From Candidatus Nanoarchaeia archaeon (lineage in GTDB: Archaea > Nanobdellota > Nanobdellia > Tiddalikarchaeales > Tiddalikarchaeaceae): a stretch of 36,723 nucleotides of DNA. The notes under the pieces were generated by a model. That model saw only the letters and a list, made by a program, of their open reading frames with translations, ran no database searches and was not told the DNA's origin. Both the position numbers and the translations under genes were made by a program. Of the stretch, positions 3,430 to 34,564 are shown in pieces (position 1 is the stretch's first letter; each line of letters opens with the position of its first letter). Where the stretch lies: positions 1 through 36,723 of the forward strand of contig JAQTTT010000001.1 of the NCBI GenBank assembly GCA_028710615.1, read 5' to 3'.

Positions 3430-3948
3430 ATGCCTGATTTATTAGCTTTGCCTGCAGAGAACATTAAAGTGATTGCTGACATTAATTCAAGGGCTTTGGC
3501 TTACTTGATTGATGTATTGTTTTTTTTCTTCATGATACTCATGCCTTTCAGCTCAGTTTATTACGAGTTTGCTGGATTGAAGATTGAAAATTTGACTTTA
3601 GAAGAATCAATGGAGAATCCGCAGATTTTCAGCCTTTTAATGATTGGTTACTCCTCATGCCTGTTAATTTTTTTTTTCTATTTTGCATGTTTTGAGTATT
3701 TATTGAACGGCAGTTTGGGCAAAAAAATGCTTGGATTGTCAGTTGCAAGCAAAGGGAAAAAAAGGGGCTTAAGCCAGTTCATTGTCAGGAATCTTTCAAA
3801 AACGATTTTTTTTAATTTCTTGGCTTTTGACTGCTTTTTAATGCTTTTTGATGCCCAGAAAAGAAGGGTTAGCGATTTCATTTCAAACACTTTGGTTGTG
3901 AGGAATAGGAAAATTATAAAAAAGTTCAGGGCGATTAATGAGTTATGA
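3430..3948 (+). CDS. RDD-family integral membrane protein
   Basis: The N-terminal RALAYLIDVLFFFF motif is RDD-like. Three hydrophobic helices are present. The 4-nt ATGA overlap with the next gene suggests translational coupling. Confidence 0.55.
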   Translation: MPDLLALPAENIKVIADINSRALAYLIDVLFFFFMILMPFSSVYYEFAGLKIENLTLEESMENPQIFSLLMIGYSSCLLIFFFYFACFEYLLNGSLGKKMLGLSVASKGKKRGLSQFIVRNLSKTIFFNFLAFDCFLMLFDAQKRRVSDFISNTLVVRNRKIIKKFRAINEL

Positions 3949-4787
3949 ATGAATTGATTAAGGTTTTTTATTTGTTTGGATTGGTTTTTTTGCTTATTCT
4001 TTTAAGCTCTTATGTTCTTTCAGGCATTTACGGGATTAATGAAGGAAATGTTGCGCTTATAATGATTCATTCAGAAATTGGAATAAGCAGCTCTTTTTTG
4101 GGAGGGGGAATGAGCAGTGATTCAATAATTGAGTCTTTGAAGATTGCTGAGAATAATCCAAATGTTGAAGCAGTTATATTGTCTATTAACAGCCCGGGAG
4201 GCTCAGTTGTTGCTTGCAAAGAAGTTGCTGAATACATTTTGGGAATGGATAAGCCTGTTGTTGCCTGGATAAGGGATTTGGGCACTAGCGGAGCTTACCT
4301 TATTTCAAGTGCAAGCAATTACATTGTAAGCGATGAATTATCTCTTATTGGAAATATTGGCTCTAAAATCAGCTTTTTAAGCTTTAATGGAACCCTTGAA
4401 AAATACGGCGCAAAGTTCAACGAAGTTTCAAGCGGCTCATTAAAAGAGATGGGCTCTCCTTACAAAGATTTAAGCAATGAGGAATACTTGATTCTTTCCG
4501 GATTAGTCAATGACTCTTTTGAATATTTCATAAATTTTATTTCCAATAACAGGAATTTAAGCAATGAATCAATAATCCTTGTCAGCGATGGCAGGATTAT
4601 TTCAGGAAAGCAGGGATTTGATATTGGGTTGGTTGATGCTCTTGGCTCAAGAAATGAGGTTATTGATTATATTGAATCAATCAACATTACTGATGTAATT
4701 GTTTATGAGATTAATGTTAAATCCGGATTGGATTTTTTGAGCTTTTTTGATTTTAATTCTAATTTAGCTTTTCCCACATATGATTAA
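3945..4787 (+). CDS. sppA: Signal peptide peptidase SppA (S49 family, 36K type)
   Basis: N-terminal TM anchor. The motifs INSPGGSVVA and GTSGAYLISSASNYIV match the S49 catalytic-region pattern. Confidence 0.85.
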   Translation: MNELIKVFYLFGLVFLLILLSSYVLSGIYGINEGNVALIMIHSEIGISSSFLGGGMSSDSIIESLKIAENNPNVEAVILSINSPGGSVVACKEVAEYILGMDKPVVAWIRDLGTSGAYLISSASNYIVSDELSLIGNIGSKISFLSFNGTLEKYGAKFNEVSSGSLKEMGSPYKDLSNEEYLILSGLVNDSFEYFINFISNNRNLSNESIILVSDGRIISGKQGFDIGLVDALGSRNEVIDYIESINITDVIVYEINVKSGLDFLSFFDFNSNLAFPTYD

Positions 4788-17088: not shown

Positions 17089-17679
17089 ATGAACAAAAAA
17101 GAATTGGAAATAATATTGTCTAAATTAAAGGATTATTCTGACAAAAAGCCTTCGCTTGAGCAATACATTACTCCCTCAAAGAATGCTGCTGATTTATTGT
17201 GGAGCGCTTATATGAATGCTGACATTCAAGGCAAAACAATTATTGATGCTGGCTGCGGAAACGGCATTTTAGGGATTGGCGCTTTATTATTGGGAGCAAA
17301 GAAAGTGATATTCATTGATATTGACAAGAAAGCAATAATGACTGCTGAAGAAAATCTTAAAGCCCTGAAATTAAAAAATTTTGAGCTTATTAATTCTGAT
17401 ATTTTTGATTTGGATTTAAAAGCTGATGTCTTGATTACTAATCCTCCGTTCGGAGTGCAAAATGCTGGCAGGGATGTTGATTTCTTGATGAAATGCTCGC
17501 AATTATCTGACAAGATTTATTTGATATATAAGGGCGATGGCTTGAAAATACTGAAAAAGAATTTTCCTGACAAGAATGTTGAAGTAATTAAAATTGATGA
17601 ATTATTATTAAAAAAGCAGTTCACTTTTCACACTAAAGACAAGGCTAAAACTAAAATACTCTTGGCAAGGATTTCATGA
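17089..17679 (+). CDS. METTL5-like class I SAM-dependent N6-adenine RNA methyltransferase
   Basis: [11 protein letters not shown]-binding [15 protein letters not shown], and the catalytic NPPFG motif ([10 protein letters not shown]). About 196 aa, as in COG2263/METTL5 orthologues. Confidence 0.75.
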
Positions 17680-20463
17680 GCAGCTTCCAGCAGTGAATAC
17701 TCCGCTGCAGCAGGAATGCGTTGAATTCCAAAAATAATCCAATGCATCATTATTTCCGCAGCACCAATAATTAGCCATGTCTGTCCATGAAGCAGTTATG
17801 TTGTCAATCAAAAATTCAGCCACTTCTGACGGAGTTCCTATGGAATCAGTCCCTAATAATAATGCTCCAATCACTTCATTTCCCCAGTATCTTCCATTAT
17901 ATCCCTCATAATATCCTTCTTGGGATGGATACCAATTATCATTGATTTTCACTCTCCATTTTCCGGGGTCGGAATCAGGGTCTTCTTCAGGATCATAAGG
18001 AACTGAATGAATTTCAATATTATCCCAGTTCCCGCTGGCTTCAAGAGATATTGGAGTCAAACTATCCACTGCAAAATAATTGCCCCCGAGTAAGGCAAAA
18101 ACCAAAACAACGTTTCCAGTATTGTCCATTAATCCAATATATGTTGCCGCTGTTCCTGATGTTGTGACTTTTAAATCAAAAGAAACATAATCCCCAAGGT
18201 CTCCATAGAATTCAAAATTCCTGAAAACAAGAAGCGACGCATCTGTTGATTCATCATAGAATTTTCCTAAAACGTTTTCATTCTCTTCAATTGCAATGAA
18301 TCCCATGCCTGATTCTGGAGCGAATATGAAATGAGTCCAATCATCATCTTCAAGTATGCTGCTTCCATTGCTGAATCTTTCAAAAGTTTCAGAATAATAA
18401 ATATCCATTCCCTCCCCGTTAATCCAGTCATGCCCATAATAATTGCATAATTCGCTGTTATTATTTAATTCACTGTTAATGTATTCTCCTTCAATGCAGA
18501 AATGCGTTGTTGTTTCAAGAGTTCCATTATAAAAAGTGTCTGATGCGCCGTCATCTCCGCAGCAAGCAGCAGAGCCTTGCATAAAACCAATTGGGCTATT
18601 AATCCATGATGCTCTGATGTCCGTGATGTCAAACGTGCCGTTCCCGCTGTCCAGTTCCACATTCGAAACTGTGCCCATTGCCAATGAGACTGGGTTCGCT
18701 GTGCTTGGCACGCCATCAAGGAAAAAATTGACTGATGACGCATTAATTGCTTGCACTTTCAACTCCCCATCAGTGCTGTTGAACAGTTCAATATTGGCGT
18801 CAGCTTCAATCCATGACACTGTTAAATTTTTGATGTGTATTTGATCTAAAGTTGCAGTGCTTGAACTAACTGACAAGTGATCTATATTACCAGAACCAAT
18901 TGCTTGATAACACATTGGATCATTTCCATTGCTCGCAATCTTCACAGGAACGCCATTAATCCAGAGTTTGAACGTTGAGCTGGCATCAAATTCCATCTTA
19001 TAATGGTACCATGTATTTTCAGACATTCCAGTGTAATCCGTGCCAACATATGCAGCGCCATTATATACGCGCATCGCGCCAGTTGAATTAACTGCCATTA
19101 CAATATATGAATACCTGTACCACGGCGGCGAGGAACTATAGCTACCTACAGTGAAACCGCCTGAAGCAGCGTGACTTGGAATGCGTGCGTCAAACTCTAT
19201 ATACTTGCCTGCTTCATAATTAATAGAATTGCCAGTCCACTCGAATTGCACGCCAGCAGAACCATCTGTTCTTATATCCTTAAATTCAATATAATGCGCA
19301 TCGCCACTAATGCGTTTATATAGCGTTCCATATGTGGGAAAATTTACATATCCGCGTAATGTGATGTGTTCAAATTGCGTGCCAGCAGTGTATAGATTAG
19401 TTCCATCCGCCACAACGTTGCTGTTGTTATCATTCTCAAAAGACTCAATGTAAGTGGATGGAGGGTTGAGTAGATAAATCCCTGCGCTTGAATATTCAAG
19501 TGTGGCTGCTGCGCCGATTGAGATGCGCGCTGCATCGAGAACCGCGTGCGAGGTTTCAAGCGAGAACCAATCCCCTGCCACCCAATCCCTTGATGCGGAA
19601 AATGTGAAAACTGGATTGATGTTCGCTGTTGCGTTGGCATCCGCGAATCGCCCCCACGAACGCCCTCCCCCATCAATGTATCTTGTGAACGAGCAATCTG
19701 CTGCCTCAGTCCAAGCATCCCAACCATTCTTGTTTCTTATTGTTTCATTTTCTTCAAAAGTTATGAAATCTTCAACCACTCCATGATTAATCCAGGAATA
19801 ACCCTGAGCTTCGCATAAATTCTTGTTATAATCTATTGGCTGAAAAACATAAACCCCTTGGTAGCAGAAATGCTGGGTTGAGCCTATTGAGCTATTGTAA
19901 AAATTATCCAATAATCCTCCGTATCCGCAGCATGCGCCCCCAGTTCCTGACACGATCCCATTAAACCACACATAAGACGCGTTATACTCATAGCAATCGC
20001 TTTCAATAAGATTGGGCTTGCTGTTTAAAGAAACAGGGTTTGCGACAAATCTTCTTTCAACAGTGTTTCTTTCTGCAGGGCTGAAAGTTTCAACCTGCTT
20101 GCCTGTTCCATAAACAACTTTTACTGTGAAATCTTCCCCTGCTTTTCTTGGAAAAAAAGTTACTTCAACGCCTTCTCCTGGAAAAAGAGGCTCTTCAAGC
20201 TCATAATCCAAAAGCTCGTCATTAATGAAAATAAGCAATTCATAGGCTGGTCCTGAGCCTTCGTTTAAAAGGATTACGCTGTCTCCCAAGGCAGACACTA
20301 TTTTAATATTTGAATGGTCTGATAAAGGATTTAATGAAGTATCAAATCCTGACTGCGAATCTTCCATTATTGCTGTAATGAAAAAAAAGGCTGAAACAGC
20401 AGAAACAATGGTGAGTATTAGCAATAAAGTCATGCTCACTATTGGAGAAATGGATTTATGCAT
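17674..20463 (-). CDS. Large surface protein with an archaeal type IV pilin-like (class III) signal peptide, jelly-roll/LamG-like domains and three Cys-rich modules
   Basis: N-terminus [28 protein letters not shown] matches the archaeal pilin/flagellin-type [KR][GAS]-ISPIV pattern. [23 protein letters not shown] is LamG-like. The Cys modules are described in the findings. Confidence 0.7.
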
Positions 20464-22299: not shown

Positions 22300-23115
22300 T
22301 TAATCCTTGAATGTTCCTGGCAAAGGGTAAGGGCTTTTGGGAAGCCAGCAAAGCCCCCTGTTCTGGGAGCCTGCTGAAGTGTATTTAAAATCCTCATACT
22401 TTTTTGCTAAATCATTGATTGATTTTTTTTCATCAATTGATAATTCCCCTAAGTGGTGTTTTGGGCTGAAAGATTCAATGATTTTTTCCAATAATTCAGT
22501 TAATTTGGCGTTTGAATACTTGGCGAAGTATCCCACATTTTTTTTAAGGATTTCAGCGTCTTTTTCATCATACCCTTTTATTAATTTAATGGCTAAATCA
22601 TAATCCGGCTTTGAGTAATAAAATGCTCCGTGAATCAACAAGCAATCATTCAGGCTGTGCTGAGCCAAGCCCATTAAAATCTGGTTATTGACATAGATGT
22701 CAAAGCCGTATTTCCTGTCATCCTTTAATTCAGCTTTTAAGCCGAACCCGTTAAACGCGTTAATGAATTTGCAAGCAACGTATTCGTAATTCTTTTTCAA
22801 TGAAAAATTATCCTTTAAACCCGGAATAATCAGCAAGAATGATACATCATTGTTGTGAATATACGCCCTTCCTCCCCCAAGCATCCTGACAACAGAGTAA
22901 TTGTTCTTTTTAGCCAATTCCAAGTCAACATCATCAATGGACTGGTTGTAGCTTAATGTTATTGAAGGCTCCCATTGAAAAAAAGCAAGAGTGGCTTCCT
23001 TGGATTTTGAGTGAAGAGCTTCAGTAACCGCAGCTATTTTTGGCGCTTTAAAATTTTGCAGAGAAAGAACTCTTAAATTCGAATTTTTCAGCTTATCTTC
23101 AATACCCATAATCAT
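22300..23115 (-). CDS. Lipoate-protein ligase A-like protein (BPL/LplA/LipB fold), atypical active site
   Basis: VVRMLGGGRAYIHNNDVSFLLI matches the LplA RRxSGGGAVYHD region. A downstream ..MGLAQH.. segment sits where the K-containing GxKxxGxA motif is expected, but it has no Lys. Confidence 0.65.
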   Translation of the reverse strand: MIMGIEDKLKNSNLRVLSLQNFKAPKIAAVTEALHSKSKEATLAFFQWEPSITLSYNQSIDDVDLELAKKNNYSVVRMLGGGRAYIHNNDVSFLLIIPGLKDNFSLKKNYEYVACKFINAFNGFGLKAELKDDRKYGFDIYVNNQILMGLAQHSLNDCLLIHGAFYYSKPDYDLAIKLIKGYDEKDAEILKKNVGYFAKYSNAKLTELLEKIIESFSPKHHLGELSIDEKKSINDLAKKYEDFKYTSAGSQNRGLCWLPKSPYPLPGTFKD

Positions 23116-23142
23116 TAATTTTTTTTAGTGATTGCATTATTT

Positions 23143-24426
23143 TTAAAGCTTTTTTTGCATTTTTTTCAGGCAAGCATGGCACGCAACGCTTATTGGGTCA
23201 AATAATCGGGAAAGCATTGGATTATAGCAATTATTCATGCCAATCAAATCTTTAAGCTTAAGCCTTTTTTTTATTGCAAGCGATAATAAATTAATTGAGG
23301 AGGAAATGTTTGCTGTGCTTATTGCTTCGCACCCGATTATTTCAGATTCGCTGTTGGCAATTATTTTTACCATAATCCAGTCTTTTGAAATGCATTCCTT
23401 TAAAATGCTTGATTTGTATGCTGCTGAAAAATCTTTTTCTCCCCGCTTTTTTCCTGCTGAGCCAAAAACAAGATTCCCTATTTTTGAAATTCCTGAATTG
23501 ACTGAAGCAAACGCTTCCTCGCTTGATTGCATGTTGTTTGCCAAAGCTTTTGCCATTTTGTGCGCAGTGCTTGCCAATCCGCAAACCCTCGGTTCATTGA
23601 AAAAGTCTTGAAACTCCGCGCAATCGCCTATTGCATAGATGTCTTTTTCGCTTGTCTGCAAATAATCATCAACAATTATTCCTTTATTAGTTTTTATTCC
23701 TGCCTGCTTTGCCAAATCAATATTAGGGGCTGTTCCTGCGCAAACAACTATTAAATCGCAGGATATTTTTTCATGCGACAACATTATTTCATTGCTGTGC
23801 GCTGATTTTATTTGCGCATTCATAATCACTCTTGCACCGTTTTTTTCAAGCTCTTCTTTTAATATGATTGAAAATTGCGGGCTTATGCTGTAATTTAAAA
23901 TGTTTTCAGCCCTGTCAATAAGGAAGACTTGGTGCCCTGATTTTGACAGTGAATCGGATAATTCGCATCCAATGTATCCTGCGCCAATTATTGCTATTTT
24001 TGCTTTTTTTCCTTTTATTTTTTCTTTCAGCATTTTCGCGTCATTTATTGACGAAAAAGTCAGGGGATTCTTTAGCCCTTCAATTTTTGGAATAAAATGC
24101 TTTGCTCCAAGAGCAAGGATTAATTTATCATAATTTATTGAATGAGTTTCTCCGTCTTTTTCATAAACCGCTTTTTTTGAGTGAGAATCAATCTTAACTG
24201 CTTTTGCTGGATTGATTAATTCTATGTTGCTGAATTTCAAATCAGCTTCATTAAACAGGCATTCATAGGAGATTTCATTGCTTAAGTAATAAGGCAATGA
24301 GCATGGAGAATAGTTGAATTCTTTTGATTCTTCAATCAAAATTATTTTTGAGCTCTTGTCAATTTTTCTTAATTCCTGCGCAAAAAGAGTGCCGCTTGTT
24401 CCTGCTCCGAGTATAACTATATTCAT
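23143..24426 (-). CDS. FAD-dependent pyridine nucleotide-disulfide oxidoreductase, NADH oxidase / CoA-disulfide reductase family
   Basis: FAD fold IVILGAGTSGT. Single redox Cys motif YSPCSLPYY. NAD fold IAIIGAGYIGCE. Also IYAIGDCAEF. Confidence 0.85.
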   Translation of the reverse strand: MNIVILGAGTSGTLFAQELRKIDKSSKIILIEESKEFNYSPCSLPYYLSNEISYECLFNEADLKFSNIELINPAKAVKIDSHSKKAVYEKDGETHSINYDKLILALGAKHFIPKIEGLKNPLTFSSINDAKMLKEKIKGKKAKIAIIGAGYIGCELSDSLSKSGHQVFLIDRAENILNYSISPQFSIILKEELEKNGARVIMNAQIKSAHSNEIMLSHEKISCDLIVVCAGTAPNIDLAKQAGIKTNKGIIVDDYLQTSEKDIYAIGDCAEFQDFFNEPRVCGLASTAHKMAKALANNMQSSEEAFASVNSGISKIGNLVFGSAGKKRGEKDFSAAYKSSILKECISKDWIMVKIIANSESEIIGCEAISTANISSSINLLSLAIKKRLKLKDLIGMNNCYNPMLSRLFDPISVACHACLKKMQKKL

Positions 24427-24713
24427 TTTTGTTTCCTTAATTTTTTCAATTCATTCTGGGCTTTCATCAAGTAAGCCAGGCTTGGCCCTCCGCCCATCAT
24501 TACTGCAACCCACATTGCCTCATTTATTTCTTCATCAGTTGCTTTTAATTTTATTAATTCAGCCAAATGGTGCGTTATGCAGTCATCGCATTGGGCTTTA
24601 ACTGATAATGAAATGGCTATTAATTCCTTGAATTTCTCGCTTAAAGCGCCTGATTTTTTTATTTTTTCAGCCATTTGCATGAAAGCTTTTGCGTTTTCTC
24701 CGGTTAAATCCAT
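24423..24713 (-). CDS. Carboxymuconolactone decarboxylase-family (AhpD-like) CxxC protein
   Basis: 96 aa, with the CMD/AhpD signature SVKAQCDDCITHH. 4-nt overlap with the downstream flavoprotein gene. Confidence 0.8.
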   Translation of the reverse strand: MDLTGENAKAFMQMAEKIKKSGALSEKFKELIAISLSVKAQCDDCITHHLAELIKLKATDEEINEAMWVAVMMGGGPSLAYLMKAQNELKKLRKQK

Positions 24714-24734
24714 ACAATCACCTCCAAAATACTA

Positions 24735-25121
24735 TTATTTAAATTCTTTTTCATAATGCTTTAATGCTTCTTGGCTGTTCATTAATTCCTTTAATTCTTT
24801 TTCATTGCTGATTTTCATCTTTACCAGCCAAGCACTATACGGAGAATCATTGATTATTGACGGCTCATCATACGCTTTCATGTTTATTTCAATGATTTCT
24901 CCTGAAAGCGGGCTTTTAATATTGCCTGCCCATTTAACTGCTTCTAATGACGCGTAAGTTTGCCCTTTTTTTATTTTTTCCCCTTTTTTAGGAAGATTAA
25001 TAAAAATGAATTCTTTTGTTTTCTTGGCAGACGGCTCAATCATTCCAATAATTGCTTGCCCATTTTTTTCATCAATCCAATTATGCTCTTTGTCGTACTT
25101 AAGGTTTTTAGGAAAATTCAT
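24735..25121 (-). CDS. gcvH: Glycine-cleavage H-type lipoyl carrier protein (stand-alone in this window)
   Basis: KYDKEHNWIDEKNG...IGMI and the lipoyl-lysine region ASLEAVKWAGNIKSPLSGEIIEIN. The C-terminal SAWLVKMKI is typical of GcvH. Confidence 0.88.
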   Translation of the reverse strand: MNFPKNLKYDKEHNWIDEKNGQAIIGMIEPSAKKTKEFIFINLPKKGEKIKKGQTYASLEAVKWAGNIKSPLSGEIIEINMKAYDEPSIINDSPYSAWLVKMKISNEKELKELMNSQEALKHYEKEFK

Positions 25122-26761
25122 TTTTTCTTCTTACTCTTTTTAACTTTTTTATTTTTCGCAGGCACTTCTTTTTTTTCTTCAATTTCAATTTCCGCCTCTT
25201 TTTTGACTATTTTAAAATTAGTGTAAGCATAATTTATTGCCCATGTGATTATTCCTGCTGCTAAAAATATTTTTATCATGCTGAAAAAATCATCCATTAA
25301 TTCAGGCATGAAAATCATTGAGAATCCCAATGCGAACATGAATAATCCTCCGAATAATTTCAGGATTCTTCCATGCTTTTCCTCAAACTTTGACATCCTT
25401 AAAGTGCATGCTGCTGCAAAAACTATGGCTGCTTCATCAAGCATGTAAATTCCCAAATAAATTGCTAAATGCATTAAAAATTCAATTCCAATTATTGAAT
25501 TCCTTGCCATTATTGATGTCCATAATACTGGCAAGCCTGCAGTGCATGGAAGCTCAACCAATGTAACGCTTAAAGCCAAAAGGATTGTGCCTAAAACCAT
25601 TGCTCTTAAAGAATTCTCAGGATTCATCAGTTTCCTGATTTTTTTGAATAATCCCGGCTTATGCTCATCAGATATTGTAAAAGACAATCCTTTTTTATAC
25701 CAAAAATAGTCCTTAATATTTACTGATGCAAACAATAATGCCAATAGCCCTATGAATAATCTTATCCAAAAAACAAAACCCACATAATAAAGGATGTTTA
25801 ATAATCCAACCATGAATATTCCATAAACCACTGTTGTTGTGATTAAGAAAGTCAATCCAATCAATAATATTTTTTTTCTTGAGCCAGTGTAAAGAACTAT
25901 TCCCAATAAAAACATTATCATCCATAAAGAGCATGGATTGACTCCATCCATTATTGCTATTATTAAAGTGACTAAGTATAAAGACATGCTTGACAAATCA
26001 ACATCTCCCATAAAAGGAATTGTGAGGATGAAATCTTCCTCTGAAACCATTGAGTCAGACACTGGAACATTTGAAGTGTATGCATTAATGTTTTCAACAG
26101 GGCAAGAGCATGAATCATTCAGGCATTTGACAATCAGTGATTCAAGATTATTTATTATTGCGCTGTCTCCTGCCAAATAATAATCCCCCAGGAAAACTAT
26201 TGGGAATCCTGCGCTTACAATGCCGTAAGTTTTTTTGAACTCATTGTATAATTCTTTTTGCTCAGGATAATCATGGATTACTATTTCAACGCCGTATTTT
26301 TCCTTTAATTCTGAAAAGGTTTGGTTGGCAACTCCGCATTGCTCGCAGTCCCAGGTTAAAAAAGCGTGAAGGCACAACGGCTCTGCGTCATTAATTATTT
26401 TTTCTCCGCAACCCCCGTAAGCAATGCAATTCTCTATTTGGGAAATGATTGCCGGATTAAGGCTTGAATGGTAACCTTCCCAATATTTGTCTCCTATAAC
26501 TGTGAATGGAACGCCTCTTGGCGAAACTCCAACTTCATTGGCTTTTTGAACCCACAAATTAGCATTTTGCGGCGAGCTTGAAACATCATATAATTTTAGG
26601 TTTATTTGAGGATAAGAATCTATTATTGATTCAAAAAAAGCTTTTTGATTCAGGCAATAAGGGCATCCTGAACTCCAGAAAAAATATATGTCAACCTCGT
26701 ATTGCGCATAAGCGCTTGAAAGCATTAAAGCCAGCATTGACAATAATATTAATTTTTTCAT
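25118..26761 (-). CDS. Secreted tandem thioredoxin/glutaredoxin-like domains fused to a CcdA/DsbD-like transmembrane thiol-disulfide transporter
   Basis: Signal peptide MKKLILLSMLALMLSSAYA. Two CxxC folds: WSSGCPYC and TWDCEQC. A multi-TM domain follows, with the paired Cys motifs DGVNPCSLW and VELPCTAGLP. Lys-rich cytoplasmic tail. Confidence 0.7.
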   Translation of the reverse strand: MKKLILLSMLALMLSSAYAQYEVDIYFFWSSGCPYCLNQKAFFESIIDSYPQINLKLYDVSSSPQNANLWVQKANEVGVSPRGVPFTVIGDKYWEGYHSSLNPAIISQIENCIAYGGCGEKIINDAEPLCLHAFLTWDCEQCGVANQTFSELKEKYGVEIVIHDYPEQKELYNEFKKTYGIVSAGFPIVFLGDYYLAGDSAIINNLESLIVKCLNDSCSCPVENINAYTSNVPVSDSMVSEEDFILTIPFMGDVDLSSMSLYLVTLIIAIMDGVNPCSLWMIMFLLGIVLYTGSRKKILLIGLTFLITTTVVYGIFMVGLLNILYYVGFVFWIRLFIGLLALLFASVNIKDYFWYKKGLSFTISDEHKPGLFKKIRKLMNPENSLRAMVLGTILLALSVTLVELPCTAGLPVLWTSIMARNSIIGIEFLMHLAIYLGIYMLDEAAIVFAAACTLRMSKFEEKHGRILKLFGGLFMFALGFSMIFMPELMDDFFSMIKIFLAAGIITWAINYAYTNFKIVKKEAEIEIEEKKEVPAKNKKVKKSKKKK

Positions 26762-26857: not shown

Positions 26858-26880
26858 AAGGGGAAAAAAAAAATTCCCTT
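26858..26880 (-). terminator. Candidate archaeal oligo-T terminator (T10) with a short stem
   Basis: On the minus strand the RNA reads UAA-GGGAA-U10-CCCCUUCUUUU immediately after the micro-ORF stop. The A10 run on the + strand is at 26864-26873. The aaggg/ccctt arms can pair. Confidence 0.45.
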
Positions 26881-27007
26881 ATTTTTGCTGGCATAAAGCG
26901 CATACTTCTTTTTGCTTGTCTCCGCAATTCAGGCAAAACTTTGAACCGCATTTGCTGCACTTAAAAACTTTTTTGCTTTTCATGTTATTGCATATATCGC
27001 ATTTCAT
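26879..27007 (-). CDS. 42-aa eight-cysteine zinc-finger microprotein (not in the ORF track)
   Basis: Hand translation: MKCDICNNMKSKKVFKCSKCGSKFCLNCGDKQKEVCALCQQK. This gives four CxxC pairs. GAGGTG lies upstream (27021-27026). A T10 terminator follows. The + ORF 26760-27014 is its shadow. Confidence 0.45.
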   Translation of the reverse strand: MKCDICNNMKSKKVFKCSKCGSKFCLNCGDKQKEVCALCQQK

Positions 27008-27067
27008 TAATTAAACTATTCACCTCTCAATTTATTAAAGAAAAAAATTTGGAAAGCCAATAAGCAA

Positions 27068-27205
27068 TTAATCCTTTTTTTTCATAATCTTCGCCCTTTC
27101 TTTGTAGCACTTTGGGCAAATGCTATTATAAGCATTCTGTTTAGTCTTGGGGTTAAAGCCCTTCTTGCAAACTTTGCACCGTATATTATAATTATATGTT
27201 TTCAA
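27068..27205 (-). CDS. 45-aa zinc-ribbon microprotein, probable TTG start (not in the ORF track)
   Basis: Hand translation: (L/M)KTYNYNIRCKVCKKGFNPKTKQNAYNSICPKCYKERAKIMKKKD. It has two CxxC knuckles. AAGGAG lies 11 nt upstream of the TTG. There is no in-frame ATG before the first Cys. Confidence 0.4.
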   Translation of the reverse strand: MKTYNYNIRCKVCKKGFNPKTKQNAYNSICPKCYKERAKIMKKKD

Positions 27206-27260
27206 TTTAATAAAACTCCTTAGCATTGATTAATAATTCGCCATTTATAAACCCTGATAT

Positions 27261-29231
27261 TTATTTCAGCCTTTGAGCCCTTTTTTGAGTGATTGAATGG
27301 CTTATTTTATGCTCAATTGACACATTGCTTTTCAAATCCCTCACCATTATTTCAAAAGGAGCGCTTTTTATTTTAAAATAAAAATGATGCCCTTTGTATT
27401 GCTCTATTCTTAATATTTTTTTTTCAAAGCAATGCCCTTTTTCTTTCAAAATTTCCGACACTGTTTTTATGATTCTTCTTAAATCTTTTGAAGAGTGGAG
27501 CATTTGAATGCTGAAAATATCATCTATTTCATTTAATGGAATATTTTTCATTAGGCTGTGCTGCCACAGCCCTGCAGGCTGCCTGATTCTCATCCTTGCC
27601 CCAAGAATTAACGGATTGCGCTTTAATTCTTTTGTTAAATCTTTTTCAAAAAGAATTGCTTTTTTTTCTCCGCCAATCATAGAAAAAAGATTATTAAGCA
27701 CTTTCAGTGCTTTTTTATGCTCATTAGGGAACATTTCTTCAAACAATGATTCATGCGCGCTGTAAAAATTTGAGCGCTTCTTGCAAAATTTCTCTGAAAC
27801 ATCCATTAAAGCTGCTGCGAGAAGGATTTTTTCTTTTTTTTTCAAAGAAAGATTTAGCGCTTCTTTTTTAAAATCAGCCATGTTTTTTTCAAATAATTCC
27901 ATGAGCTCAGGGCTTATCTCATCTTGAATCCTTTTTACTGCTTTAAAATATTCTGCAACTTTTTTTTTCATGGTGTTTTTTTTATTTTTTAAAGGAGCTC
28001 CAAGATAAAAAGCGATTAAATTGCCCTGATTCCAAAAATTTTTGCTTTTTTCAATTAATGGAAGAGCTAATTCCCCGTAAAGCTTAATCAAGAATCCGTT
28101 AATTAAAAAATGATTTTGGTTTTTTTTTAAAAGATTTAAATAATAAGACAAAAGCCCTTTTTTTCTTTTGTTTTTCATTTCTTTTATGGGCGTATATGAT
28201 ATTTCCAAAATCCTTAATGCAGTTTTTTTTTCGCTTAATCTTGGATTTTGCGCTTTTATTATTCCCATGCTCTTGAGTGTGCATAAGTCTTTAATTTTAA
28301 GCAATTCTTTTTTTAGCTCTTTATTTTTGCTTAATATTATTTTTCCCGTATGCAATGCTTCGGGAATCAATCCCCTGCAGGGCTTGTAAATCTTCCTGGA
28401 TTTAATCATTGGATAAACGGGCAAAGAGTTTTTTTTCAAAAAAAGCGATTGTTTGTTGTCAAAATCAGGTATTATGAATCTTCCATGATTTGATTCTTTC
28501 AGGCATTGCGCGCAGAAATTGTTTGCTGAATAATGAAGCGCTTTTAATGAAATGATTTTAAAATTCGCAAATATTCCATTTTTTAGCAAGCCGCAGCGCG
28601 CCACGCCCTTATTGCTTGCAAACCATTCAAGCTCTTTTTTTGTTGGAAGATTGTAATGAATTGCTTTGAGCTCTTTGAATATCTTTTTAAGAAAATTTTT
28701 CATTTTATTCGGCTTCATCAGGGAATCATCGTTCACTAAAAGCACGCAATCAATATCTGAAAATAAATTAATGCTTTCTTTTCTTAAAAAAAAGCTTCCC
28801 CACCCCATTAAAGCAACATTTTTTTTCTGGTTAAGAACGGATTTTTTAAGCTTTTTAACAAAAGATTTTTTTAAAACAGCGTGTTTTTTTTTAAAAAAAA
28901 AATTTAGCTCAAATCCTTCTTGCCATTGCAAATAACTGCAAACAAGAAATCCGAAAATTTTTTGAAAAAGCGCAAAATCCTGGTTGCATAATGTTTTTGC
29001 AATTTCTTCGCAATCTTTGCATGCCAAAACCTCATTTTTCAGATGAATAATGCTTTTTTCTTTTTTTTGCTTTGAAAAAAAATCCAATTTTTTTTTAAAA
29101 AAATCTGCAAAATCCTGTTCAATGATTAGCTCAGCAGTTAATTTTTTCATGAATTTTTTAATGGTTTTATCGGCAACTGCTTTTCCAAAACCCCTCACTT
29201 TTCTAACTTGAAACTCTTGAAGATTTTCCAT
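27261..29231 (-). CDS. Large Lys-rich protein with a Pol-beta-superfamily nucleotidyltransferase motif and a RelA/SpoT-like C-terminal region
   Basis: Possible HhH at VRGFGKAVADKTIKKF. NTase motif GWGSFFLRKESINLFSDIDCVLLV (28734-28805). The C-terminal 116 aa (27264-27611) carry RMRIRQ, IDDIFSIQM, YKGHHFYF and FEIMVRD, which parallel RelA/SpoT synthetase motifs. The gene is full of A/T homopolymers. Confidence 0.55.
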   Translation of the reverse strand: MENLQEFQVRKVRGFGKAVADKTIKKFMKKLTAELIIEQDFADFFKKKLDFFSKQKKEKSIIHLKNEVLACKDCEEIAKTLCNQDFALFQKIFGFLVCSYLQWQEGFELNFFFKKKHAVLKKSFVKKLKKSVLNQKKNVALMGWGSFFLRKESINLFSDIDCVLLVNDDSLMKPNKMKNFLKKIFKELKAIHYNLPTKKELEWFASNKGVARCGLLKNGIFANFKIISLKALHYSANNFCAQCLKESNHGRFIIPDFDNKQSLFLKKNSLPVYPMIKSRKIYKPCRGLIPEALHTGKIILSKNKELKKELLKIKDLCTLKSMGIIKAQNPRLSEKKTALRILEISYTPIKEMKNKRKKGLLSYYLNLLKKNQNHFLINGFLIKLYGELALPLIEKSKNFWNQGNLIAFYLGAPLKNKKNTMKKKVAEYFKAVKRIQDEISPELMELFEKNMADFKKEALNLSLKKKEKILLAAALMDVSEKFCKKRSNFYSAHESLFEEMFPNEHKKALKVLNNLFSMIGGEKKAILFEKDLTKELKRNPLILGARMRIRQPAGLWQHSLMKNIPLNEIDDIFSIQMLHSSKDLRRIIKTVSEILKEKGHCFEKKILRIEQYKGHHFYFKIKSAPFEIMVRDLKSNVSIEHKISHSITQKRAQRLK

Positions 29232-29344: not shown

Positions 29345-29612
29345 ATGGCTTTGAATAATTTTTTGCTAAAATCAGGGACTGAAATTGAATTGGAAAAACT
29401 AAGGGAAAAAAAAAGAAAAAACTGATTTTGAAACAAGCGTGGAATCTGTGCTTAAAAAAAGGGTTGAAGAAGAAAAACGACTTGATTATTTTAAAAGACA
29501 TCACGGCGCTGGAGGCATTGTTCCTTCTGAAAACTATTCTAACAAACGGCGCGAGGATGAAGCTTTGCTGGAAAAATATTTTATGCAAAAAAGAATAAAA
29601 ATAACTTTATAA
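29345..29612 (+). pseudogene. K/E-rich small ORF (about 88 aa) interrupted by a frameshift in an A9 run
   Basis: Frame 1 reads MALNNFLLKSGTEIELEKLREKKRKN-stop (29345-29425). Frame 2 (29424-29612) reads DFETSVESVLKKRVEEEKRLDYFKRHHGAGGIVPSENYSNKRREDEALLEKYFMQKRIKITL. Frame 2 has no start codon and opens right after a stop at 29400-29402. Removing one A from the A9 run (29406-29414) joins the two frames. Confidence 0.3.
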
Positions 29613-29638: not shown

Positions 29639-30574
29639 ATGATTTGCAAAAAAAACAATGCTGTTATGGAAGAAATTATCGGATTGAATGATAATTCTTA
29701 TTTATGCGAATGCGGAAACAAATCATTGTTTTCAACCAATAAAGACGGATATTTGACTTGCATGGAGTGCGGATTGGTTTATGATGATTCAAAATCTTTT
29801 GAATTCAGGGATGCTCAGACTTACACTTTTGAAGAATTTTTATCAAATAAAAGAACTGAAGTTTTCAGGAGCGTTGGAATGAGAACAGTTGTAAGGGGAG
29901 GGAAAGATTATTTTCATAAACACTTGGGGCTTGAAAAAACAAAAAAATTCAGAAGGCTTTCAAAAATACATAACACTTCAATAAATAATGCTGAAAGGAA
30001 TTACATAATAGCAAAGCCTTGCCTTGAGAATCTTGCAAAAAACCTTAAAATTAATATTCCTGATTTTGTCCAAAAAACTGCTTGGAAAATTTATAAGCAG
30101 TCTTTTCATCAAAAATTGCTGAGAGGCAGGACTATTGAAAGCTTTTGCGCGGCATCGCTTTATTCTGCAATAAGAATGCATGATATTCCCCTGACTCTTG
30201 ATGACATAATATCTGTTTTTAAAATTAATAAATTTTCTGTCAAAAAAACTTTTTCAATTGTTGTTCAAGAAGTCCTTCCGAAATTAAATTATTTTTATAT
30301 TCCTCTCAGCCCAACATCAATTATACAAAGATTTTCAAGCTCTTTAGGTTTAAGCGGGGAAGCTGAAAAAAAAGCCATTGATATATTGAAAAATGCTAAA
30401 GATTCCGGGCTTAATTTTTTGGGAAAAGACCCTAAAGGATACGCTGCATCAGCAATTTATTTGGCTGGAAAAATAATGGATTGCAAGGCAACTCAGGAAA
30501 AAATATCAAGCGCTATTGGCACAACTGAGCTGACAATAAGAAATAGGAACAATGATTTGAAAAAATTTTGCTGA
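29639..30574 (+). CDS. tfb: Transcription initiation factor IIB (TFB)
   Basis: N-terminal zinc ribbon LCECGNKS...LTCMECGLVYDD. Two cyclin-like repeats follow (RGRTIESFCAASLYSAIRMHDIPLTLDDI and GKDPKGYAASAIYLAGKIMDCKATQEKIS), with a C-terminal HTH TTELTIRNR. Confidence 0.88.
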   Translation: MICKKNNAVMEEIIGLNDNSYLCECGNKSLFSTNKDGYLTCMECGLVYDDSKSFEFRDAQTYTFEEFLSNKRTEVFRSVGMRTVVRGGKDYFHKHLGLEKTKKFRRLSKIHNTSINNAERNYIIAKPCLENLAKNLKINIPDFVQKTAWKIYKQSFHQKLLRGRTIESFCAASLYSAIRMHDIPLTLDDIISVFKINKFSVKKTFSIVVQEVLPKLNYFYIPLSPTSIIQRFSSSLGLSGEAEKKAIDILKNAKDSGLNFLGKDPKGYAASAIYLAGKIMDCKATQEKISSAIGTTELTIRNRNNDLKKFC

Positions 30575-33837: not shown

Positions 33838-33999
33838 TTATTGATTGCCTAATGTAAGAATGGGTATTCCCTGCTTTATTTTGTATTCTTTTTTGCATTT
33901 TTTGCATTTTAATGCATTTTTTTCAAGGGTTAATTCTTCTTTGCATTTTGGGCAGGCAAGGATTTTCAATAATTCGGCGTTAAATTTTCGTGCTGGCAT
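33838..33999 (-). CDS. trm112: Trm112-like zinc-ribbon methyltransferase activator (53 aa)
   Basis: MPARKFNAELLKILACPKCKEELTLEKNALKCKKCKKEYKIKQGIPILT matches the Trm112/UPF0434 pattern. The ATG at 33999 is preceded by GGAGG (34011-34015). The track start at 34098 would overlap the methyltransferase gene by 119 nt. Confidence 0.7.
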   Translation of the reverse strand: MPARKFNAELLKILACPKCKEELTLEKNALKCKKCKKEYKIKQGIPILTLGNQ

Positions 34000-34564
34000 A
34001 AACCTTAAACCCTCCTTTTTTAGCAAGTACTTTGGAATTTTTAAACTCTTCTTGCATGAATTTTTCAAGCCTGCTTCCCCCTTTATTGTGCCTTGCAACT
34101 ATTTGAAGAATCCCGTTTTTTTTTAAATGATTGAATGATTCTTTTATTAACTCTTGGCAAAGCTTCATTCCTGCGCTTATCGGCGGGTTGAGGCAGATGT
34201 TGTCAAATAAATTATTTATGCTTTCAAATCCGTTGCTGTCAATGATTTCAGCTTTAACCTTGTTTTCTTTAATGTTTTTTTTCATAAGCATTAATGCCCT
34301 TAAATTAATCTCGCTCATTGAAACATTTGCTCCCATTTTAAAAGCAACTATCCCTATCACTCCGTATCCGCTGCCCAAATCAAGGAATGCTTCGTTTTTT
34401 TTTATTATCATATTCTCTGCCAATAATTTTGTTGCTGTATCTATTTTTTTGGGGCTGAAAACTCCTGTGCTTGTGTGAAATGTTAAATCAAATCCCCTTA
34501 CCTTTTTTTTTATTAAATAAAATTTTAAGGGGCTTAAAGGGTTTCTTGTGTAGTAATGCTCCAT
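33980..34564 (-). CDS. MJ0882/RsmC-like small-domain class I SAM-dependent methyltransferase
   Basis: TSTGVFSPKKIDTATKLL, LDLGSGYGVIGI, CLNPPISAG and a C-terminal KKGGFKVY. As far as I recall the MJ0882 family, it is collinear with it. Confidence 0.8.
   Translation of the reverse strand: MEHYYTRNPLSPLKFYLIKKKVRGFDLTFHTSTGVFSPKKIDTATKLLAENMIIKKNEAFLDLGSGYGVIGIVAFKMGANVSMSEINLRALMLMKKNIKENKVKAEIIDSNGFESINNLFDNICLNPPISAGMKLCQELIKESFNHLKKNGILQIVARHNKGGSRLEKFMQEEFKNSKVLAKKGGFKVYASTKI

Follow-up and report, generated by a model that had tools for sequence, protein, structure and literature searches.

The gene and its product

The question raised by the locus described here is what a large, lysine-rich protein does among the core genes of a small-genome archaeon, and whether it belongs together with the small genes that lie behind it. 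The locus is part of 36,723 nt of Candidatus Nanoarchaeia archaeon (contig JAQTTT010000001.1, assembly GCA_028710615.1), the whole of which is referred to below as the window. An open reading frame (ORF) on the minus strand at 27261-29231 encodes a protein of 656 amino acids (aa), here the founder of a family that is rare and uncharacterised, and is followed by two cysteine-rich micro-ORFs and a run of ten T residues (T10). In the original prediction, made from the sequence alone, the large protein was given two nucleotidyltransferase (NTase) folds, and this was borne out: an N-terminal domain of the DNA polymerase beta (Pol-beta) type and a C-terminal domain of the RelA/SpoT type were assigned, both with high confidence. 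The evidence modestly favours an enzyme that stands alone, is strongly basic and has two active sites: one of an ATP-dependent 3'-pyrophosphokinase, with a nucleotide or the 3' end of an RNA as its substrate, and a second one of the NTase type.

All motifs and ORFs listed in the original prediction, and the T10 run, are present on the minus strand. The NTase motif reads G145-S146, eleven residues, S158-D159-I-D161-C-VLLV166; the motif had thus been recognised correctly, with a spacing of twelve residues that proved to be wrong. The C-terminal motifs are R548-I-R550, D570-D571-IFSIQ576, Y612-K-G614-H-H616 and F626-E627-IMV-R631-D. Lysine makes up 16.9% of the protein, the isoelectric point (pI) is 9.9 and the net charge about +67. 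Seven of the eight other members longer than 600 aa are basic as well (pI 8.3-10.05), the GC-rich P0012 among them; the distant member P0019 is acidic (pI 5.4). Fifteen homopolymer runs of at least 8 nt lie inside the gene. The gene is intact despite these runs, since it is collinear from end to end with homologues of 654-670 aa (P0002, P0004-P0006, P0008 and P0009) and since the identical protein was found in three assemblies, namely the NCBI metagenome-assembled genome GCA_028687195.1 and two independent read-set assemblies.

No model of Pfam-A or NCBIfam scored above threshold on any family member. Searches of PDB sequences by phmmer and hmmsearch, with the whole protein, with profiles of the family, the C-terminal domain and the middle region, and with the N-terminal domain of P0008, gave chance matches only. 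The domain layout was taken from an AlphaFold2 (AF2) model and from the collinearity of the homologues, and consists of an N-terminal helical domain, a Pol-beta NTase, a second helical region and a RelA/SpoT-like domain. The model was computed on a family alignment of 14 sequences (predicted local distance difference test, pLDDT, 92.4; predicted template modelling score, pTM, 0.87); with three sequences only, the pLDDT was 53 and the model unusable. Four parts are seen: helices at 4-134; an alpha/beta NTase core at 139-228, behind which come a beta-rich insertion (243-285) and a strand at 297-301; helices at 304-536; and a b-a-b-a-b-b-b-a domain at 542-655.

The C-terminal domain

Residues 539-656 (27264-27617, minus strand) form a divergent RelA/SpoT homologue (RSH) synthetase-fold domain, as judged by Pfam, hhalign, AF2 and Foldseek. 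The best Pfam match of the whole protein was PF04607 (RelA_SpoT), with E = 0.0023 and 18.6 bits, in which residues 548-651 were aligned to model positions 2-110 of 113. Nine of the 14 members matched this model, at their C-termini and over nearly its full length, the best with E = 3.1e-4 and 21.4 bits. The family C-terminus was also compared with an RSH reference alignment whose sequences were verified against the PDB (Bacillus subtilis RelQ, 5DED; 2BE3; 3L9D; Escherichia coli RelA, 5IQR; B. subtilis Rel, 6YXA). This gave E = 4.7e-4 and a score of 28.3 in hhalign, about seven standard deviations above 100 column-shuffled controls (12.0 ± 2.2, maximum 18.2); the reversed profile scored 15.1. 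The C-terminal motif correspondences to the RelA/SpoT core that had been read by eye in the original prediction were recovered in identical register by this profile-profile alignment.

Structural comparison gave the same assignment. The 11 best Foldseek matches in the PDB were all catalytic regions of Rel, RelA or SpoT (probability 0.92-1.0), and FaRel2 (8pu4) was returned as well. Top matches among viral models included phage RelA/SpoT, Tas1 and YjbM-like proteins, the compact ones with a root-mean-square deviation (rmsd) of 3-6.7 Å over 130-180 columns. The secondary structure of the AF2 model runs b542-549, a552-562, b573-579, a584-597, b602-609, b612-621, b624-631 and a639-655. The sheet is mixed and has five strands with helices at its flanks, as is typical of the RSH synthetase fold, and it can be superposed on RSH structures that have been solved.

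The residues aligned with the catalytic positions of RelQ are well conserved. R548 and R550 correspond to R46 and K48 of the basic ATP-phosphate motif, D571 to the Mg2+ ligand D72, Y612 and H616 to Y116 and H120, associated with acceptor stacking, E627 to E139 and R631 to R143. D571, E627, Y612, H616 and R548 are invariant in an alignment of 13 sequences (A4) that includes the distant P0019; R631 is conserved in most members and invariant in an alignment of eight sequences (A5), and G614 is conserved too. The counterpart of R-x-K-x-x-x-S-x-x-x-K is R548-I-R550-Q-P-A-G554-L-W-Q-H558, in which only the first arginine and the second basic residue are retained. FaRel2 is inactivated by the substitutions D90G and Y128A, at the equivalents of the Mg-binding aspartate and the acceptor-stacking tyrosine (bioRxiv 10.1101/2021.04.30.441581). 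Because Pfam, the profile-profile alignment and Foldseek against both the PDB and viral models agree, the C-terminal domain is assigned as a highly divergent RSH synthetase fold, a remote branch that keeps the catalytic core and is no member of PF04607 by Pfam's criterion.

The N-terminal half and the middle region

The protein begins with an all-alpha domain, residues 1-134 (28830-29231, minus strand), defined by the AF2 helices at 4-134 and the family alignment and marked by a conserved N-terminal NLQ motif. The segment GFGKAVADKTI (residues 14-24) had been described in the original prediction as resembling a helix-hairpin-helix (HhH). Apart from the window protein, only P0003 and P0004 have GFGK, and these in part; the rest of the family has unrelated residues there, and the Pfam model IMS_HHH gave E = 0.13; an HhH DNA-binding motif was rejected because of this lack of conservation.

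Residues 135-302 (28326-28829, minus strand) were assigned as a Pol-beta-superfamily NTase core on motifs, sub-threshold Pfam matches and the order of strands and helices in the AF2 model. The core is marked by G145-S146, D159-x-D161, D168, E200, H192-Y-N194 and ARCG at 211-214, and includes the beta-rich insertion. W-G145-S146 and S-D159-x-D161 recur without exception in the ten members in which the NTase region is present, and the same pattern is visible in P0019. Different members matched MTPAP-like_central over the same stretch (E = 8.9e-5, 1.7e-3 and 0.053), and Polbeta (3.6e-4), NTP_transf_7 (4.5e-3) and NTP_transf_2 (0.021) were matched there too. Trf4, Cid1, GLD-2, TUT4/7 and Pol lambda/mu were also returned by Foldseek from the PDB. 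The N-terminal half is thus a Pol-beta-superfamily NTase with helical domains on both sides, its closest matches being the palms of non-canonical poly(A)/poly(U) polymerases.

Between the two NTase-fold domains lies an all-alpha middle region, residues 303-538 (27618-28325, minus strand; AF2 helices 304-536). Its second half begins at about residue 377 and has W400, FxxG411, D477, E480, R486, E494, F497 and F501 as invariant columns. The short family forms P0014 and P0016 begin at about the same residue, so that the second half of the middle region forms one unit with the RSH-like domain. No HD or other Pfam signal and no PDB sequence match was obtained for residues 303-538. Foldseek alignments of 330-400 columns to the N-terminal (HD and SYNTH) regions of Rel had suggested a degenerate HD hydrolase here; this reading is unproven and was dropped because there is no HD Pfam signal, no conserved His-Asp pair and an rmsd as large as 12-17 Å.

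Family and distribution

An exhaustive HMMER search of 1.84 billion protein cluster representatives gave 18 family members, eight of them close to full length. P0002, P0004-P0006, P0008, P0009 and P0012 are full-length or nearly so. P0007 (429 aa) is a long C-terminal form, and several other entries are fragments. Two short forms correspond to the C-terminal part only, P0014 (318 aa) to residues 377-654 and P0016 (304 aa) to residues 397-646. P0019, of 916 aa, is a distant member that has residues 457-650 in common with the window protein (hhalign probability 97.5%). A word-indexed homologue search with the 656-aa protein gave two relatives only; such searches returned three proteins with the 656-aa query, three with the 14-sequence alignment and one with the C-terminal alignment, the lysine-rich query swamping the index. 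A degenerate DNA pattern found one 2.8-kb contig in a genome collection of 185,579 species and one contig in metagenomes, and the protein encoded on the two contigs is the same. The narrow-alignment search of genome contigs and viral contigs gave no relative, the DNA pattern had no match in viral contigs, and tblastn had no match to the family in plasmids and phages.

It had been claimed originally that no described family has this architecture. This held: no Pfam, NCBIfam or PADLOC model covers the family, and the architecture is not described in the full-text literature searched. Both folds are well known in themselves, but the libraries and literature searched contain no description of the family, of its architecture or of its presence in a core region of an archaeon.

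The same rarity bears on whether the protein could be a housekeeping enzyme in disguise, an archaeal CCA-adding enzyme or a Pol X DNA polymerase. The GS...DxD motif would fit such an enzyme, and Foldseek gave weak matches to the A-adding enzyme 3wfo (probability 0.25) and to Pol lambda/mu (0.4-0.87). Against this, no match to the CCA-adding, PolyA_pol or Pol X families of Pfam and NCBIfam was found at any level, 18 members in 1.84 billion representatives are far too few for a universal enzyme, and the 185,579 species yielded the one contig only. A housekeeping identity is extremely improbable.

Two relatives deserve separate mention. P0012 is GC-rich and bacterial-looking, so the family is not confined to low-GC archaea. 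P0003 is split into ORFs of 572 and 99 aa by a frameshift beside an A8 run (ctttaaaaaaaataaatg; locus L002, 2187-2218). The split is either an assembly error or a pseudogene, and the homopolymer-rich genes of this family are prone to such breaks.

Proposed activity

In the proposed mechanism, the RSH-like domain would bind ATP-Mg2+ via R548, R550, D571 and E627 and would transfer the beta,gamma-pyrophosphate to the 3'-OH of an acceptor ribose, the base of which would be stacked on Y612. The N-terminal NTase may prepare or hold the substrate, regulate the second site or add a second nucleotidyl transfer. The pyrophosphate transfer by the RSH-like domain would be the chemistry of the (p)ppGpp/(p)ppApp synthetases and of the toxic small alarmone synthetases (toxSAS) that pyrophosphorylate tRNA-CCA ends. 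Given the very basic character of the protein and the resemblance of the partner domain to RNA 3'-end enzymes, the acceptor would most likely be a purine nucleotide or the 3' end of a nucleic acid. The charge and the partner domain favour the 3' end of an RNA, which as a specific choice is possible but rather doubtful.

Phosphohydrolase genes stand directly upstream of three homologues. At L018, a His_Phos_1 gene (E = 3e-50; 894-1532) ends 5 nt before the short form P0014, and genes for guanylate kinase, a phosphoribosyltransferase and a HAD hydrolase are nearby. At L017, a HAD-like gene (E = 1.9e-5; 169-831) lies 30 nt before the short form P0016, and at L009 a gene of the CYTH triphosphatase family (124-723) lies 274 nt before the full-length P0008. 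These upstream phosphohydrolases are suggestive of a pairing of synthetase and hydrolase around a phosphorylated, nucleotide-type product.

Several observations weigh against a two-site pyrophosphokinase. Phosphatase neighbours were found in only three of about 11 contexts, and the window has none. Every PF04607 match lies below the gathering threshold of 27 bits (18.6-21.4 bits), and the hhalign probability was 32%, a value obtained with thin profiles and without the use of secondary structure. The long Foldseek alignments to Rel N-terminal regions have the large rmsd of 12-17 Å given above. In the family sequence D571-I-F-S574-I-Q576, S574 and Q576 stand for the glycine and arginine of DxxGxR, and the glutamine and threonine of ExQxRT are replaced by M629 and D632 (Met/Ile and Asp/Asn across the family); with these substitutions, catalysis or substrate may differ from those of the RSH enzymes. 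The NTase Pfam matches are likewise all sub-threshold (MTPAP-like_central 23 versus 27 bits, Polbeta 21.1 versus 26.9, NTP_transf_7 16.7 versus 27), and the Foldseek matches to terminal uridylyltransferases (TUTases) and Pol X come without query ranges and may align to either the N- or the C-terminal domain. The third carboxylate position of the NTase, on beta-3 (192-194), reads H-Y-N and has no acidic residue, N194 being conserved. Judged from these residues, the N-terminal site could be non-canonical or inactive; the conserved D168 and E200 might serve as substitutes for the third carboxylate.

The substitutions at S574, Q576, M629 and D632 could also be taken to mean that only the N-terminal NTase is catalytic, in RNA 3'-end tailing or repair of the Cid1/Trf4/CCA class, and that the RSH-like domain is a degenerate binding module. 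The C-terminal domains of poly(A) polymerases are RNA-binding, and the order of NTase, helical and alpha/beta parts resembles that of poly(A) polymerases and class I CCA enzymes. The GS and DxD motifs are invariant, and TUT4/7, with two NTase modules of which one is inactive, is among the full-length Foldseek matches. On the other hand, the invariance of D571, E627, Y612, H616 and R548 in alignment A4, even in P0019, would be unexpected for a dead domain. P0014 and P0016 keep the RSH-like unit and lack the NTase entirely, and it is the NTase whose third carboxylate is non-canonical. An enzyme with the NTase site alone is quite unlikely, and a pyrophosphokinase with a second NTase site remains the preferred reading.

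Repeats and possible mobility of the family gene

Imperfect direct repeats of about 60-80 nt (71-95% identical), 2.15-3.9 kb apart, bracket the family gene at L001, L010/L011 and L013. Those of L001 (79-156 and 2230-2305) each start with ...TAAC and end with GTTATA, and the downstream copy folds as an attC-like R/L-box hairpin. At L010 the repeats lie at 279-355 and 2522-2618 (equal to 1301-1362 and 3544-3605 of L011), with 90% identity over 62 nt and 95% over 19 nt. At L013 they lie at 1-71 and 3891-3961 (87% identity over 71 nt) and enclose a deaminase-like gene too; what remains in the second copy is the 3' end of the upstream gene, without a start. Overlaps from circular assembly do not explain the repeats, because they are imperfect. 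No such repeats flank the window gene. The flanking repeats suggest a cassette-like insertion.

An ORF for an IS4-like DDE transposase (L012, 208-1050) was observed 500 nt upstream of P0012. Together, the repeats and the transposase point to horizontal mobility of the family gene in some lineages. Single-gene contigs of 2.2-2.9 kb were considered as mini-replicons, an idea that was rejected as they are better explained by the steep size distribution of the contigs. No conserved upstream element was seen in the alignment, in which three contigs end 134-141 nt before the start codon.

Directly after the downstream repeat, a gene for a peptidase S51 (dipeptidase E/cyanophycinase family) was found at two loci (L011, 564-1253, minus strand; L013, 4014-4634, plus strand), and the family proteins of these loci are only distantly related, one being P0004-like and the other P0019. 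The recurrence reflects either a conserved insertion site or a functional link. A 29-nt inverted repeat (83% complementary, 28-nt spacer; AAAAATTCACCCCCACACCTATCGGGGAT / ATCACCAATAGGTGTGGGGGTTTATCTTT) was noted in GC-richer sequence downstream of P0003 (L002, 2758-2843); it had no Rfam match.

These signs of mobility raise the possibility of a self-contained mobile conflict gene for a toxin or defence enzyme in a single polypeptide, similar to the fused toxin-antitoxin CapRel. The NTase and helical part would sense a trigger or auto-inhibit the enzyme, and the RSH-like domain, once activated, would pyrophosphorylate tRNA or exhaust the ATP. Such a gene would account for the very patchy distribution, with 18 representatives in the whole protein collection, and for neighbours that differ at every locus. 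The direct repeats of L001 (attC-like), L010/L011 and L013 and the transposase ORF adjoining P0012 would suit it as well, as would the presence of FaRel2 and Tas1 among the closest small structural matches. The window copy, however, has no flanking repeats, and its surroundings are core genes without a defence island. The searches of plasmids, phages and viral contigs gave no relatives, and no PADLOC model matched. A conflict gene of this kind is considered unlikely.

A wider proposal joins the preferred pyrophosphokinase reading to the mobility. The family may be the first representative of an RSH-like pyrophosphokinase lineage that is native to DPANN-type archaea and also present in a few bacteria, in which both domains would share one substrate, an RNA 3' end or a nucleotide. 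The gene would travel alone as a cassette, and neighbouring phosphohydrolases (His_Phos_1, HAD, CYTH) would counteract it. Taken as a whole this proposal is rather unlikely. If it were true, it could mean an archaeal alarmone, or a new kind of RNA mark in the form of a tail or a 3'-pyrophosphate.

The micro-ORFs and the probable terminator

Micro-ORF A (27068-27226, minus strand) encodes 52 aa from its ATG, with a zinc-ribbon type CxxC-x16-CxxC pattern and weak similarity to the HypA zinc ribbon; it is absent from the protein collection. Micro-ORF B (26879-27007, minus strand) encodes 42 aa with four CxxC pairs, from which two Zn sites with B-box/RING-like spacing are predicted (ANCHR-like B-box, E = 0.0013). 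It is annotated as a protein in the NCBI record and forms a singleton cluster. The original prediction placed the micro-ORFs at spacings of 55 and 60 nt. The latter is correct, ORF B beginning 60 nt after ORF A, with GAGGTG 13 nt upstream of its ATG. The former holds only for an in-frame TTG at 27205, preceded by AAGGAG, which would give an ORF A of 45 aa; from the stop of the large ORF to the ATG of ORF A the gap is 34 nt.

Both micro-ORFs had been called Zn-finger ORFs, and shuffled sequences confirmed that they are not random. The whole window has four ATG-started ORFs of 30-90 aa with at least two CxxC pairs, a Trm112-like gene among them. Composition-matched (first-order Markov) shuffling of the window, repeated 200 times, gave on average 0.165 such ORFs per window and none with four CxxC pairs. 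The micro-ORFs thus look like real zinc-binding proteins and not like chance ORFs. Only one further bona fide CxxC micro-ORF exists in the window, the Trm112-like zinc-ribbon ORF (53 aa, CxxC...CxxC; 33838-33999, minus strand), which was the internal positive control of these statistics; it overlaps the end of a methyltransferase gene (33980-34564, minus strand).

The T10 run, taken as a terminator in the original prediction as well, is present at 26864-26873 (minus strand), 5 nt after the stop of ORF B and inside GGGAA-T10-CCCC, as found in the sequence and by a terminator scan. Oligo-T tracts terminate archaeal RNA polymerase, and the run is a probable archaeal transcription terminator. A TATA-box-like TTTATAAA was read from the sequence at 27244-27251 (minus strand), 17 nt upstream of the ATG of ORF A, and a T7 run lies between ORF A and ORF B; because of these two elements, the micro-ORFs may be transcribed separately from the large gene, from a promoter of their own. 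A sigma-70 promoter scan remained at the level of shuffled sequence, a result that is irrelevant for an archaeon.

Whether the large gene and the micro-ORFs form a module was decided by synteny. No Cys-rich micro-ORF stands beside the homologues at the readable flanks of L002, L008, L010/L011 and L014. Downstream of the family gene, 370 nt are readable at L002 and kilobases at L008; at L010/L011 a gap of 125 nt is followed by the peptidase S51 gene, and at L014 a gap of 300 nt by an unrelated gene of 148 aa. With the peptides of ORF A and ORF B, tblastn returned only the three contigs of the same organism. Absence of the micro-ORFs beside homologues had been named beforehand as a result that would speak against the module, which must accordingly be given up.

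The operon that had been envisaged would consist of a toxic enzyme, similar to an alarmone synthetase or making a second messenger, and of two Zn-finger antitoxins or regulators, as a toxin-antitoxin or defence unit ended by T10. The genes do lie on one strand with gaps of 34 and 60 nt, the micro-ORFs are statistically real, the C-terminal RSH fold is confirmed, and toxSAS enzymes with small adjacent neutralising proteins are already known. The synteny, together with the tblastn result, largely refutes such an operon all the same. PADLOC gave no match for the 656-aa protein, P0009, P0012 or P0019, and for ORF A only a chance-level match to KwaA (E = 0.021); the TATA-like box and the T7 run suggest independent transcription, and the surroundings are of a housekeeping kind. 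The toxin-antitoxin or defence interpretation therefore failed for lack of any matching defence or toxin-antitoxin model and on its surroundings, and the operon is very improbable. The micro-ORFs and T10 are real neighbours of the large gene but do not make up a conserved system with it; the micro-ORFs are best regarded as small zinc-ribbon and treble-clef proteins of an ordinary archaeal kind, lying here by chance. Adjacent Cys-rich micro-ORFs are, in other words, no evidence of a toxin-antitoxin pair.

Other genes of the window

The window is a core segment of an archaeal chromosome with a GC content of about 34%. It carries genes for TFIIB/TFB (29639-30574), Cbf5, the Trm112-like protein with its methyltransferase, GluRS, GatD/GatE, an ATP-dependent DNA ligase, FtsZ, an Elp3-like radical-SAM/GNAT protein and TrmB, and EF-2 lies just outside. 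No integrase, transposase or known defence gene was found in the window, and Rfam gave no credible match in the region or on the homologue contigs.

The gap of 407 nt between the large gene and TFB holds a basic ORF of 57 aa (29439-29612, plus strand), 26 nt upstream of TFB, which the NCBI record, as seen in L003, calls as a gene and for which there is no Pfam match; otherwise only AT-rich, TATA-like elements were seen there. Directly downstream of the micro-ORFs, a same-strand cluster (22300-26761, minus strand) encodes GcvH, a CMD/AhpD-like protein of 96 aa, a pyridine-nucleotide-disulphide oxidoreductase, a lipoate-protein ligase and a membrane protein of 547 aa with N-terminal glutaredoxin/thioredoxin-like repeats and a DsbD-like transmembrane part. 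The cluster looks like a lipoyl/thiol-redox module in a small-genome archaeon. A very acidic protein of 929 aa (pI 4.2) is encoded at 17674-20463 (minus strand), where the GC fraction is 0.40-0.45 compared to about 0.34, and a weak SO2946-like_C match was its only Pfam signal. The protein is probably secreted or surface-located, and the GC-raised region may have been acquired from elsewhere.

Comparison with known systems

RSH enzymes are at the core of bacterial stringent-response signalling and, more recently, have become known as tRNA-modifying toxins and anti-phage effectors. With RelQ/RelP and the SYNTH domain of Rel, RelA and SpoT (PF04607), the family shares the fold, the order of secondary structure and the best structural matches, and with RelQ/RelP and the long RSHs a common register of R-x-[KR], the Mg-binding aspartate, Y-x-x-x-H and E-x-x-x-R. 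It differs from these enzymes in that it remains below the Pfam threshold, lacks TGS and ACT domains as well as any signature of an HD hydrolase, has substitutions in DxxGxR and ExQxRT and carries its RSH-like domain fused behind a Pol-beta NTase. In archaea, long RSHs have been reported as absent and small alarmone synthetases as sporadic and horizontally acquired (PMC3153485).

The toxSAS enzymes (FaRel2, PhRel2, CapRel) and Tas1 have in common with the family the RSH fold and the Asp and Tyr needed by FaRel2, and the basic character of the 656-aa protein is as expected for an RNA substrate. In contrast to toxSAS enzymes, the family has no adjacent conserved antitoxin, is three times larger and has no PADLOC match. 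Trf4, Cid1, GLD-2, TUT4/7 and MTPAP share the G-S and D-x-D motifs with the N-terminal half, with Foldseek probabilities of 0.96-1.0 over 114-160 columns. TUT4/7 also have two NTase modules, whereas the second NTase-fold domain of the family is of the RSH type and not a duplicated TUTase module. Compared to the poly(A)/poly(U) polymerases, the family has H-Y-N at the third carboxylate, no signal of a PAP-associated domain and sub-threshold matches.

The 656-aa protein is no demonstrated new system but a testable candidate for RSH/alarmone biology and archaeal RNA biology, and a concrete one for asking whether small-genome archaea make pyrophosphorylated nucleotides or RNAs. A divergent RSH-fold domain with its catalytic residues, fused to an NTase and encoded in an archaeal core region, would extend the architectures and the chemistry of the superfamily. 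A precedent for an RSH synthetase domain placed C-terminal to a nucleic-acid enzyme domain is RelZ (MS_RHII-RSD) of Mycobacterium smegmatis, an actRel with an N-terminal RNase HII-like DUF429 domain (PMC3153485). RelZ differs from the archaeal protein in its RNase HII-like partner, in being a bona fide member of PF04607 and in its bacterial origin.

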